A stretch of 64,000 bases of DNA from Rhynchopus sp. YZ270_cl-10. Taxonomy: Eukaryota. The first letter of the stretch is position 1. Each line of letters begins with the position of its first letter. The position numbers and the translations under genes were made by a program. Shown here in pieces: positions 6,996 to 19,392 of the stretch. The notes under the pieces were generated by a model, which was not told the origin of the DNA, did no database searches, and saw only the letters and a list, made by a program, of their open reading frames with translations. The stretch covers positions 1,054,001 to 1,118,000 of the forward strand of contig OZ037846.1 in NCBI GenBank assembly GCA_964035575.1, in the 5' to 3' direction.

Positions 6996-8439
6996 AGAAA
7001 ACACTCGAGAAGGAAAACGACTTTTCTCTCGAGAAAAAATTGCTTACTCACCAAGTGATCGTGAGGTGCTCTAGGTATGGGCCCTGTACAGCCCCACCCA
7101 CATCTTTCCTATAGAACCTCTTCATAACTTTTTTCCCTAGGTACTTTCTACATAACTTTTTTTTTTTGGTTTTCAAAAAATCCGGCGGGCGGTAACGGTA
7201 ACAGGCTGAAAAAGTTACACTACCCTTACCAAAAATCGTGATAAAAGCTACTTCCCAACGCAATGTAGGGGGGTCCTAGCTAGGCCGGGGCTCTGTCGGA
7301 AAAACTATTTTTTTTTAAAAATATGCCTAAGTCCCCGAAAACACACGGAATTGCTCCAGAACACATTTTTTCCAGTGTCCCGCAGTGTCCCACCACTGTT
7401 TTTTGGTTTTTGTGGCATAAAAAATACAAAAAAAAATACATGGTTCTATAGGGGCCGAGTACAATGGCGTTTTTCACGTATTTTTCATGATTTTTCAAAT
7501 TTGGCAAAATTCAAGTCAAATACCAGACATTCTCCCCCCCACCTCGTTATGTCACCAACATGCAGGGCGTTCGCCCCGGGGCGAAAAATATTTTTTTTCG
7601 TTAAAAAAATCTTTTCCTGAAAAAATGACGTTTTATTTCGCCCCAGGGCTTCGCCCCACCGGGGCGAAACCCTGTATAAATAAATAAATAAATAAAAAAA
7701 GGGGAAAAAAAAAAAAAAAAGAGAGACAGATTTCTCCCCACCACCCTGTAGACCCCCCCGGAGGGGGGGTCGCAGAGGGGTGTCCACTGTACTCAAAATC
7801 ATCCGCAAACCCGCCTGCCGTGAGAGGAAGTTTCCCCAGCACTCCCGCTCGCTCCTCAATCCTGCAGTCTGCTGAAGGTGTACCGTACCCCCTGTTATAG
7901 AAGGTGTCACTGCTCGTGTCAACTCTATCTTCAATGGCAGAGAGTTGAAAATAATCAAAATAAGGATGAAGTCTCATATGACGGATGCCTCTCTCTTGTA
8001 CATCTGCTTGATTAAACAACACAAAGAGACCCTCAGTGAGGGGGGATTGATGAAATTCTCCATCGTTTTGCTGGTTTTAGTATCAGGAAAGTTCAGCTGT
8101 AATATCACTTGTGCTGGGGAAGGGATCACGCACAAATCGCAAATTTTTTTTGACCATTCAGTACCAGGGATTCACCCCACGAACTAACTTCTCTCCGGCG
8201 GGGAAAATTTTTTTGACCTATTTTAAGCACTAGTAAAAAAACGAAAATTTCGGGGTTTTTGGCATTTCGCCACGATCAGGAAAAAACGATGGCGATAGCG
8301 AACGCCCTGCCAACATGTCCAAAAAAAAGATGTTTTTCCATTTTGTATTCTACCCCCAGTGTAACATAAAATTCCACATTTCCACCAAAATCCACAAACC
8401 CAGCGTCACACACAGGCTAATATCGCTCCGAAAATGTCC

Positions 8440-9630
8440 GTCATTGTTTCAGTTATTTGACAACAGTTCTGCAGGCGCACTTTCGTAGGGTACCTAATGT
8501 CACTATTTGGGCACATTTGGAGGTGTTGCAACGGTGCGCTCTTAAATCTGCCGTCATTGTTTCAGTTATTTGACAACAGTTCTTCAGGCGCACTTTCGTA
8601 GGGTATCTAATGTCACTATTTGGGCACATTTGGAAGTGTTGCAACGGTGCGCTCTTAAATCTGCCGTCATTGTTTCAGTTATTTGACAACAGTTCTGCAG
8701 GCGCACTTTCGTAGGGTACCTAATGTCACTATTTGGGCACATTTGGAGGTGTTGCAACGGTGCGCTCTTAAATCTGCCGTCATTGTTTCAGTTATTTGAC
8801 AACAGTTCTTCAGGCGCACTTTCGTAGGGTATCTAATGTCACTATTTGGGCACATTTGGAGGTGTTACAGCGGTGCGCTCTTAAATCTGCCGTCATTGTT
8901 TCAGTTATTTGACAACAGTTCTTCAGGCGCACTTTCGTAGGGTATCTAATGTCACTATTTGGGCACATTTGGAGGTGTTGCAACGGTGCGCTCTTAAATC
9001 TGCCGTCATTGTTTCAGTTATTTGACAACAGTTCTGCAGGCGCACTTTCGTAGGGTATCTAATGTCACTATTTGGGCACATTTGGAAGTGTTGCAACGGT
9101 GCGCTCTTAAATCTGCCGTCATTGTTTCAGTTATTTGACAACAGTTCTGCAGGCGCACTTTCGTAGGGTACCTAATGTCACTATTTGGGCACATTTGGAG
9201 GTGTTGCAACGGTGCGCTCTTAAATCTGCCGTCATTGTTTCAGTTATTTGACAACAGTTCTTCAGGCGCACTTTCGTAGGGTACCTAATGTCACTATTTG
9301 GGCACATTTGGAAGTGTTGCAACGGTGCGCTCTTAAATCTGCCGTCATTGTTTCAGTTATTTGACAACAGTTCTGCAGGCGCACTTTCGTAGGGTATCTA
9401 ATGTCACTATTTGGGCACATTTGGAAGTGTTGCAACGGTGCGCTCTTAAATCTGCCGTCATTGTTTCAGTTATTTGACAACAGTTCTTCAGGCGCACTTT
9501 CGTAGGGTATCTAATGTCACTATTTGGGCACATTTGGAGGTGTTACAGCGGTGCGCTCTTAAATCTGCCGTCATTGTTTCAGTTATTTGACAACAGTTCT
9601 TCAGGCGCACTTTCGTAGGGTACCTAATGT
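8440..9630 (+). repeat. 113-bp tandem array, 10 full copies plus 61 bp
   Basis: Unit GTCATTGTTTCAGTTATTTGACAAC...CTTAAATCTGCC starts at 8440, 8553 ... 9570; only a few recurrent variant positions. Confidence 0.97.
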
Positions 9631-16598: not shown

Positions 16599-18910
16599 GG
16601 GGAATAGTCAGTTATGCCCTACCCTTTTTTTGAAATGGTCAGAGATACCCGAAAATAAGTTCAGATATTGGTCAGAGATGCCCCATTTTCAAAAATAGGG
16701 CATAACTGACCAATATCTGAACTTATTTTCGGGTATTTCGGGTATCTCTGACTATTTCTCAACTTATTTTCGGGCATGTCTGACCATATCGCCAACTTTT
16801 TTCGGGTACCCCAAAAAAGTTGGTTTTCGGGTATACCCAGATACCCAGATACCCAGATACCCAGATACCCAGATACCCAGATACCCAGATACCCAGATAC
16901 CCAGATACCCAGATACCCAGATACCCAGATACCCAGATACCCAGATACCCAGATACCCAGATACCCAGATACCCAGATACCCAGATACCCAGATACCCAG
17001 ATACCCAGATACCCAGATACCCAGATACCCAGATACCCAGATACCCAGATACCCAGATACCAGGTCCAGGTCCAGGTACCCAGGAACAGGAAAAAAGTCG
17101 TGAAAGAGCAACCACAGCTCCACATGACAAACACAAAAGTGTCCAGTCACGTGGGGCATTCATGCACTGAGGAGATAATGATCCAACAATTTACAAGAAA
17201 GATTACTTAACCTACTGCTGGAAATTGCCAGGTCGTAGTAACACACAAAGTGTGCCTCCGTTCGGGAAGACCGGATATTCTAGAGACCAAAAAGGCCTCA
17301 AGAATATCTTCCGGTAGTCAAGGTAGAACCGAGTGAACGGCCCAAGACCCCCGTGGAGAAGTTAAATGTTGTAATGCTATCAGGTAGAAACTGCGAACAC
17401 TGTCTTACCCTCCTCAATGCATGGTGGTGTCTTCCACAACAAATTTCCTGTACCCAGGTACCCAGGTTTCCAGACCCACGCAGCACTACGTCGCAGTACT
17501 ACGCAAAATTTACCACCAGACCCTGTCTTCGTGCACCTGAAGTACAACGCCGCAGACAGGCCAAACATGCGTTGGACTCAGAGGAATGCCCGCTGTGCAG
17601 GTATCATGAGAACCAACTCCCAGCAACAAGGGGCGCCTTTTGGCGGGCGTTGTTGAGGGTGTTTGGGGTGCAAAGTTTTCCACAATTTTGATGCGCGGGT
17701 ACAGAAGTGTTATCTTGTTCTTTCATCTCTAAGAAATGTAAATGTCAATCGCGTTTAACTACCACGAGGGCTTGTTCAGTGAACCCACGAGGGGTCGAAG
17801 GGGGTTGGTTATCCCATATCTATCAAAGGTTGTGTCGACCAGGCTAAACCACTATGTTACGCTGTACGTTGTTAAATCCGAAGAAATAACACTTTAGCAG
17901 CCGCAGGAAGTTTGCTAAAAAGAGTGCCTCACGCTACACAAACCACCACCCGCGATTGACTTAGATGTTATAACAAAGAGAATTCAGAACAAAACAACAC
18001 CCTGCCCCATACACACTAAATTGTCATGCTTCAAGAGCATGCCTGGGCCAAAATTACTGTGACAAAAAAGGCAACAAGACCACCCACAAGGAGTGTGAAA
18101 TGTGCACTGGTTTTCTGGGGGAACGCAATATTTTCTTGTGCCTCGTCCTCCGTAAGCAGAGGACAGACTTTCCGGAAGGTTTCCAAAGTCGAATTTCTTG
18201 CACTAGCTATGCTCCCTGGGTTAATGGCTATAGCAGTGACTGACAAAGTGTTCCCACCCCCAGGTCTTCGTCCACAAACAAATCTAGAATAGATTGATTT
18301 GGGTGAAGCCTTGGATTTTGAGTTGTTGAATGTCGGAGAGCGGCGCTCATCGCAATCACGGATGCAGTTCAGATTTCACGATCCTGTGATGAGTGTAAAT
18401 GTGGGGTGTGATTAAGTTATGGTATACAAACGCAGTAGTCGGGAAGGGTGAGGTTAATGAAAAAAGTGGTAATAACTATGTATTTCCGCGAAATAAGGTA
18501 GCCTTTTTTCACGCTACAGAGAGTTTCCTGCTGCACTAATGGTTCCCAAGCGAAGCGAGGGACCATGTATAAGGGTTTGCGGGTTTGCGGGTATTTACCC
18601 CCACTAAAAGTGGCTGTGTGTGGGGTAGAGGGGTGAAAATCATACCATGCTGCTTCAATACTGTCTCTGCTGTCGCATTCCCTCATGGTGGGTCACTCAC
18701 CCACTGGGCAAAAAATCAAAGGGGGTACCCCCAAATAAGTGGGTACCCCAAATAAGTTCAGAGATACCCGAAAAAAGTTCAGATATACCCGAAAATAAGT
18801 TCAGATATAGTCAGTTATGCCCTATTTCTGGTTTTCGGGTATATCTGAACTTATTTTCGGGTATCTCTGACCATTTCAAAAAAAGGGTAGGGTATAACTG
18901 ACTATTCCCC
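16599..18910. mobile_element. Non-autonomous TIR element nested in the 11.75-kb element
   Basis: ~70-bp TIR GGGGAATAGTCAGTTAT(G/A)CCCTACCCT..GAAATGGTCAGAGATACCCGAAAATAAGTTCAGATAT; both flanks are T runs. Confidence 0.85.
16833..17060. repeat. (ATACCCAG)28 microsatellite
   Basis: Perfect 8-mer run. Confidence 0.97.
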
Positions 18911-19392
18911 TTTTTTTTTTTTTTTTTTTTTTTTGTGACCCCAAAAATTTGACAACACCTCAAAATAGTTTTTCCGACAGACCCTCCCATAGAAATTTGG
19001 TCGGCTAGGACCCCCCTACGCAATGTGACTAAGAACCACTATCCTACCAATTAATATTGGCGACCAAAAAAGTCGCCAATTACAAGAAAACCCCCAAAAT
19101 GCGCCAATATTTTCGTCGCCAAGTTTCTTGTCCTACTGTATGTTATTTGTATGGATAGTTGAAATGACGTTGCTATGAATTGGCAACGTTATAATTGCTG
19201 GTGTTCATCAGTTTTATTTGACTTCAGCCACATCATTGAGAACACCACTTCATGTTTCGCGCTGTTTCCAAGACGTCTGCAGGTCTTCCTCTCTCTCGCC
19301 ACTGCAGGAAGAAGGTGCCACCTGGGATGGTTCCGTCATAGCGTGCAGGTGTTTCTCACACAGCTTGCACCCTACAGATACTGACACACACA

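Follow-up and report, generated by a model that had tools for sequence, protein, structure and literature searches.

A DNA transposon without detectable transposase that carries a putative deubiquitinase of likely bacterial origin in Rhynchopus sp. YZ270_cl-10

Introduction

How does a DNA transposon with no detectable transposase come to carry a large protease gene, and what might that gene do for it? The question is raised by an element of 11.75 kb at positions 7258-19026 of a 64,000-nucleotide stretch from Rhynchopus sp. YZ270_cl-10 (assembly GCA_964035575.1, contig OZ037846.1, positions 1,054,001 to 1,118,000, forward strand; hereafter the window, in whose coordinates all positions are given). 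The original prediction, made from the letters of the window, described a perfect 9-bp direct repeat with bipartite inverted termini, both of which were located exactly. The span is a genuine DNA transposon with terminal inverted repeats (TIRs), it is repeated in the genome, and it carries a protease open reading frame (ORF) as predicted, with no transposase family matched.

Our best reading is that the element is a non-autonomous derivative with an old accessory deubiquitinase (DUB) of likely bacterial origin. In its full form, which we favour with some though not high confidence, the span is one young member of a small TIR family repeated in the genome, likely mobilised in trans, whose CE-clan protease, of likely endosymbiont origin, is predicted to be a nuclear deubiquitinase that aids the family. 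A bacterial-style CE-clan protease would have been taken up from an endosymbiont-type source, and a transposase made elsewhere would move the element in trans by cut-and-paste. The protease may act in the nucleus, where removal of ubiquitin or a ubiquitin-like tag could protect transposition proteins or loosen silencing. This helper role is suggested by analogy with the Ulp1, OTU and VTD domains found in other transposons.

Termini and target site duplication

The element is bounded by a direct repeat, read as a target site duplication (TSD), and by two blocks of inverted repeat at each end:

7258-7266, plus strand: left copy of the direct repeat, ACGCAATGT; TSD of 9 bp (7 or 5 bp should the last 1-2 bases form part of the terminus)
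19018-19026, plus strand: right copy of the direct repeat, ACGCAATGT
7265-7280, plus strand: left TIR block 1, 16 bp, no mismatch
19004-19019, minus strand: right TIR block 1, perfect 16-mer partner of 7265-7280
7289-7311, plus strand: left TIR block 2, 23 bp, one mismatch against the right end
18962-18984, minus strand: right TIR block 2, 23-bp partner of 7289-7311

A 9-bp repeat at one given place is expected by chance with a probability of 4e-6. Perfect 16-bp inverted pairs are common in the window, with 43 rows compared to 0-5 in 20 shuffles; a direct repeat of at least 3 bp abuts four of these 43, and that of the element studied is 9 bp long. A third occurrence of ACGCAATGT, at 27433, was considered as a related site and rejected, its flanks being unrelated and its occurrence within chance.

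The inverted repeat overlaps the direct repeat by two bases, which makes three readings of the ends fit equally well: AGGG termini with a 9-bp TSD, TAGGG termini with 7 bp, and GTAG(GG)..CTAC termini with 5 bp. The 9- and 7-bp readings had been proposed before and stand, whereas the 5-bp reading, which fits just as well, had been left out. With a TSD that may be 9, 7 or 5 bp long, the earlier assignment to Mutator by TSD length is not established, and Mutator is one option only. Evidence from a second site comes from contigs of public sequencing runs (labelled X here). An X2 contig has a different flank joined at 7265, so that GT precedes AGGG there too, that is, at 2 of the 2 sites seen. By our own arithmetic, each TSD reading then requires a single coincidence with a chance of about 1 in 256. 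The left-end contig of X1 (depth 2047, zero differences) has its first base exactly at 7265, and this leans towards a constant GT, either as part of the terminus with a 5-bp TSD or as a target preference.

Comparison of the ends with established superfamilies gives no clean match. Classical hAT and hATm criteria (an 8-bp TSD, and TAGGGTG ends with 8-9 bp, respectively) do not fit, as symmetric ends give 9, 7 or 5 bp. The hATm group has TAGGGTG termini and a TSD of 8-9 bp (PMC6004678), whereas TAGGGGG in the present element would give 7 bp, and no hAT transposase is found here. Repbase includes hAT families with a 7-bp TSD (PMC4455052), and the TAGGG..CCCTA reading resembles these; this criterion fits the studied site, the one complete site seen. 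Polintons (Mavericks) have a TSD of 6 bp (PMC10045372), which does not agree with the ends, and the integrase and protein-primed polymerase genes of such elements were not found in the scanned frames. No match to a Mutator-like element (MULE) DDE transposase was obtained in this copy, as expected for a non-autonomous copy.

A small family of near-identical copies

The left end is present at other genomic sites (X1 and X2 contigs), and the right end was seen at the studied copy. The N-terminal stretch of the protease gene, ORF1, occurs in 6 of the 8 runs listed (at 0.95 or more in 4), from 3 studies, one of which is perhaps the source. Over the second half of ORF1, among the 32 of 2805 pieces listed, the longest contigs differ from this copy at 1 position in 1207 (X1), 1 in 1324 (X2), 1 in 1412 (X3) and 0 in 1001 (X5), or about one change per 1.3 kb. 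X3 contains a form with 18 substitutions (depth 99) beside an identical form (depth 281), and two further 3′ forms are found in X1, X2 and X3. Near-identical pieces at low depth, and no diverged relative, were found in X6; X7 gave no left-end match, which is not proof of absence. A second left-end subfamily reaches a depth of 2845.

Depth over the ORF1 region (657-2343 in X1; 273-627 in X2, with 506 for the left part) is of the same order as at the left end, although contig depth is no copy number. The second insertion site and the variants of the ORF region thus point to a small young family rather than a single-copy host gene. The original prediction had held that ends never paired elsewhere and a single-copy syntenic host gene would speak against a transposon; the left end and the ORF both recur. 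If the rarest forms represent single loci, there would be about 3-5 such copies, possibly more.

Anatomy of ORF1

ORF1 consists of an orphan N-terminal region, a repetitive linker, a cysteine protease domain and a further C-terminal domain:

9563-13696, plus strand: ORF1, 1377 codons from stop to stop
9632-11470, plus strand: N-terminal region, 613 aa, orphan
11484-12278, plus strand: linker with a Gln/His 9-bp repeat, 48-51-bp repeats and two basic motifs resembling nuclear localisation signals (NLS; aa 656 and 826)
12440-12950, plus strand: CE-clan cysteine protease domain, with His 12656, Asp 12722, Gln 12833 and Cys 12851 intact
12951-13696, plus strand: post-protease domain, weakly related to ORF2 (24% identity, pairwise E 3e-4)

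The catalytic triad (H1032-D1054-C1097) and the oxyanion residue Q1091 are all intact. The basic motifs of the linker may serve as nuclear localisation signals, judging by their composition. At the 5′ end, the first in-frame Met lies at 9812, and coding-like sequence (GC content at third codon positions, GC3, of 0.78) begins abruptly 60 codons earlier, at about 9630, the edge of a tandem array. The ATG triplets there, at 9627 and 9642, do not share the frame of ORF1. The 5′ end of the gene may therefore be cut or spliced.

The transposase search covered 87 of the 108 frames of at least 55 aa (repeat-derived frames were excluded) as well as pieces of the ORFs, and matched no transposase family. 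For the N-terminus of ORF1, searches of Pfam, NCBIfam, PHROGs and the PDB gave no DDE, zinc-finger or recombinase match even with E values up to 10. Word-index homology searches with the N- and C-terminal parts gave no match; the Atlas gave no usable match for the N-terminus and weak leads below 0.9 for ORF2. Single-sequence folds were poor (pLDDT 45 and 35, the N-terminus at 35 being unusable). With the predicted fold, Foldseek returned nothing at E < 0.001, with OtDUB and CidB ranked 2 and 3. Three further candidates were rejected: the presence in the N-terminus of another, degenerate protease domain (hhalign probability 2.9%), homology of the N-terminus to that of the relative P0002 (z −0.3 to −0.9), and MULE- or KDZ-like motifs spotted by eye, which library scans did not support.

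Relatives and likely origin of the protease

A phmmer search of 1.84 billion proteins gave 48 matches to the ORF1 protease. The triad and the oxyanion Gln are conserved in 53-55 of 56 alignment rows. When 41 matches were scanned for domains, 23 carried Peptidase_C48 or RickCE_cat, 6 an OTT_1508 deaminase, 3 ankyrins and none a transposase; many of the relatives are modular, with deaminase, ankyrin, NACHT and F-box parts. An organism was assigned for 2 of the 30 relatives looked up, an Acanthamoeba endosymbiont (Holosporales) and a Midichloriaceae bacterium (Rickettsiales). Of the two closest matches, P0001 is a 127-aa fragment with 69% identity and P0002 a protein of 1506 aa on a 465-kb contig, with an orphan N-terminus, two tandem CE-protease modules and no transposase domain; a word-index search with it returned P0002 itself only. 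Scans of viral, metagenome and GTDB sequences yielded no relative, and L001 and L002 were unmatched by the protease profile.

Profile A1 matched only CidB, OtDUB and RickCE in the PDB at E < 0.001 (E values between 3e-11 and 1e-8); SENP and Ulp1 were missing from its matches even at E 10. A profile made without ORF1, P0001 and P0002 still gives ORF1 127 bits. On this evidence, which is partly circular, the ORF1 protease appears closer to the bacterial CE effectors CidB, OtDUB and RickCE than to eukaryotic Ulp1/SENP. It shares with CidB (Wolbachia), OtDUB (Orientia) and RickCE (Rickettsia) the His-Asp-Cys core and the oxyanion Gln, and these are the sole significant PDB matches of the family profile. 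In contrast to these Rickettsiales-type DUBs, ORF1 lies in a eukaryotic transposon, resembles host genes in codon use, and combines NLS-like motifs with an N-terminus that is an orphan; no antidote-like partner was identified here, and no link from its post-protease domain to the bacterial proteins was obtained. A post-protease domain common to the bacterial relatives was proposed and rejected as not significant.

Among CE enzymes, those of bacteria mostly favour ubiquitin and those of eukaryotes ubiquitin-like tags, and the specificity of a CE protease is not readable from its sequence (PMC6133264). Endosymbiont-type CE proteases are known from arthropod nuclear genomes, where they arrived within inserted prophage or symbiont DNA (PMC6133264). 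Bacterial endosymbionts occur in diplonemids (PMC5845003, 10.1101/719211), a possible route if the host is a diplonemid.

A truncated paralog and a proposed longer parent

A second frame downstream of ORF1 is related to its C-terminal part:

15108-15998, plus strand: ORF2, a 5′-truncated paralog of the post-protease domain, with its start close to the expected end of the catalytic Cys region

Upstream of about 15108 the frame holds no coding sequence (GC3 0.45). Of the two post-protease domains, that of P0002 (E 3e-19) is matched better by ORF2 than the one in ORF1 (24%, E 3e-4). Contigs of X3 and X5 have other sequence upstream of 15110, and a back-joint from 16396 to 14212 occurs in all four runs. 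The truncation of ORF2 and this back-joint suggest tandem cassettes in other copies; a longer parent would have carried tandem protease genes, with the studied copy a deleted and rearranged derivative of it. The 3′ regions of ORF1 (13995-14190) and ORF2 (16270-16400) are alignable, which fits a tandem gene duplication.

The relation between the two paralogs bears on when the protease was acquired. At 24% identity they exclude a recent capture, save one that took both genes together, so the protease appears to be old as an accessory gene. The very recent capture suggested earlier is not borne out: the cargo paralogs are this divergent, and the nearest relatives are of endosymbiont type and not a host gene. 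The protein matches include no near-identical host donor gene. The alternative suggestion, selection on a helper function, survives in part. Since the copies are near-identical, the open frame of ORF1 needs no selection on this copy; at a divergence of 0.1-0.3%, the chance of meeting no stop in 1354 codons is 0.6-0.8. The intact triad keeps a helper role of older date plausible.

Weighing the alternatives

Several findings weigh against an accessory deubiquitinase of bacterial origin that aids the family. Among the 14 ORF differences listed (ORF1 1, ORF2 13; 40 of 142 rows), 12 are nonsynonymous (p 0.54 against 75%), as under neutral change, although this is not a dN/dS estimate. This copy may yield no protein, since the 5′ end of ORF1 appears truncated or shifted in register. 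Neither an autonomous partner, nor the right-end flank of other copies, nor an empty site was seen; an empty site was absent from the contig rows listed, and the window holds no paralogous one. The linkage of ORF and ends in other copies is taken from similar depth. As regards origin, profile A1 was made from ORF1's own matches, which makes the PDB ranking partly circular; ORF1 by itself reaches E 0.0085 against Pfam C48, below the cut-off, and does not match RickCE_cat; and organisms are assigned to just the two relatives named above. In a protease tree (quick method, no eukaryotic Ulp1 outgroup) 6 of 49 inner branches are well supported and ORF1 is not joined with P0002, so the case for a bacterial origin rests on similarity, with donor and direction undemonstrated.

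An alternative is that the protease is passive cargo, a tandem pair of host genes, derived from an older bacterial transfer, having been picked up by a non-autonomous element and spread without benefit in the manner of Pack-type elements. The neutral look of the listed variants and the apparent 5′ damage to both ORF1 and ORF2 agree with it, as do the host-like codon GC (GC3 0.58-0.71 versus 0.58-0.67 in host genes), the two protease modules of P0002 with no transposase domain beside them, and the endosymbiont-type CE proteases of arthropod nuclear genomes (PMC6133264). However, no donor locus was seen, the long ORF1 contigs are near-identical to this copy and do not represent a distinct parent, and the 127-aa fragment P0001 (69%) is what might be expected of a decayed mobile copy. 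We regard passive carriage as unlikely, if well worth keeping in mind. Less probable still is a composite, in which the ends belong to a family of short MITEs (miniature inverted-repeat transposable elements) and the 11.75-kb span is a one-off rearrangement around resident genes. The region is indeed a nest of MITEs; nested inserts account for 26% of the span and the array for another 10%, and no contig spans the whole element. Yet the flanking direct repeat is perfect, the left end, the segment before the array and ORF1 are similar in depth, and several variants of the ORF region exist, which leaves this explanation hardly credible.

It might also be argued that the element is autonomous, or nearly so: the N-terminal 600 aa of ORF1 would then be a transposase that goes unrecognised, joined to the protease much as Ginger1 and some Mutator transposases are joined to a C-terminal Ulp1 domain. 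The order of orphan domain, basic linker and protease is the fusion layout of PMC2836005, the Atlas recognition value of 2360 lies within the range of real proteins, and the ends suit no superfamily cleanly. The failure to match any DDE, zinc-finger or recombinase domain even at E 10 (Pfam, NCBIfam, PHROGs, PDB) speaks against it, as do the dissimilarity to the P0002 N-terminus (z −0.3) and the unusable fold, and we consider it quite improbable. An extended version, in our view similarly doubtful, posits an undescribed superfamily (GTAG..CTAC, 5-bp TSD) whose transposase, the ORF1 N-terminus, is fused to a CidB-like DUB from an intracellular bacterium as a tandem-amplified module for counter-silencing or drive.

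Known transposons with ubiquitin-like proteases

For the preferred reading, a non-autonomous element with an accessory deubiquitinase, there are several parallels. Ulp1-carrying MULEs (Kaonashi/KIU and VANC in Arabidopsis, and others in melon, rice and grapevine) likewise have a CE-clan (C48) protease as an accessory gene in a DNA transposon, and Vandals carrying KIU escape silencing (PMC13317346). Those proteases are described as captured host Ulp1 and the elements are non-TIR, whereas here an endosymbiont-type protease lies between TIRs, with no match to a MULE transposase. A Ulp1 domain lies at the C-terminus of Ginger1 and of some Mutator transposases (PMC2836005), and Ginger TSDs are 4-5 bp (PMC10045372). 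The VTDs of Helitrons are active DUBs, thought to protect transposition proteins (PMC9741609). Ginger1 (Ulp1/OTU) and Helitrons (OTU/VTD) thus resemble the present element as transposons with ubiquitin-like proteases (PMC2836005, PMC9741609). Their DUB, however, forms one protein with a recognisable integrase or RepHel; here there is no such domain, and the DUB is of another subgroup. The likeness to MULEs, Ginger1 and Helitrons is one of working mode and not of demonstrated membership, and the endosymbiont-type protease, as predicted from its sequence, would be the distinguishing feature. We found no description of a CidB/RickCE-type protease in a eukaryotic DNA transposon in our searches of open-access papers.

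Nested elements and genomic context

The contents listed in the original prediction (a 113-bp array, the large protease ORF, a paralog and a nested TIR element) were all found. Its account of the nesting was right for the element at 16599-18910, and had overlooked a 747-bp MITE and the MITE that served as insertion target:

7563-8309, no strand assigned: nested high-copy hAT-type MITE, 747 bp, CAGGG..CCCTG, 12-bp TIR, 8-bp TSD
8438-9630, plus strand: 113-bp tandem array, 10.6 copies, 97%, bordering the ORF1 coding sequence
16599-18910, no strand assigned: nested TIR element, 2312 bp, GGGG..CCCC, 70-bp arms, in a poly-T run
4177-19138, no strand assigned: older MITE, the insertion target, about 406 bp without its inserts, TA on both sides, diverged arms

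A joint from 7554 to 8310 (8 shared letters) bypasses the 747-bp MITE at depths of 1795 in X1 and 506 in X2, and since this joint is deep, most copies of the host element appear to lack the MITE. The nested element at 16599-18910 holds an 8-bp microsatellite and repeats present elsewhere in the window; segments of its interior recur in other TIR elements (17088-17545 at 57430-57882, and 17520-17690 at 5970-6126). The stretches 14475-14766 and 14913-15105 are very deep in contigs, being fragments of other high-copy repeats, and 14744-14780 repeats the left-end stretch 7368-7404. The target MITE, presumably Tc1/mariner-like by its end features, has swollen from about 406 bp to 15 kb through nested insertions. 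A separate TIR element of 2793 bp (4433-7225; GGG..CCC ends, TTA on both sides) stops about 30 bp before the studied element; within it lie a 7-bp microsatellite and, at 4550-5760, a palindrome of about 1.2 kb that is nearly perfect. By its features it is presumably PIF/Harbinger-like. Further TIR pairs lie in 55462-58354, where 55462-55545 matches 57196-57279 and, inverted, 58273-58354.

The genes on either side of the element are membrane adenylate-cyclase-like and belong to a tandem array (one paralog matches Guanylate_cyc at E 8e-21); they probably resemble genes of diplonemids. The array comprises about ten genes of two types with mosaic identity (1-4165, 19393-27373, 40108-51110 and 58637-60517), and 1-4151 is duplicated at 23191-27341 with 98.5% identity. 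Rfam returned only hairpin artefacts below the cut-off, and no tRNA was found.

The host genome is repeat-rich, and the anatomy of the transposon, non-autonomous with nested MITEs and an array, is ordinary for such a genome. Tandem repeats of gene 5′ regions in Diplonema papillatum (PMC10161547) are a precedent for the 113-bp array; no passage on such elements was found in that paper's text supplements as searched.

Implications

Transposons have acquired ubiquitin-like proteases many times, for purposes that are mostly untested, and the known CE-clan cases have been described as captures of host Ulp1. If an origin from an endosymbiont effector is true, the present element would mark a route by which a symbiont's weapon became a transposon's accessory gene in a protist. 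It would also provide an intact enzyme open to direct assay.

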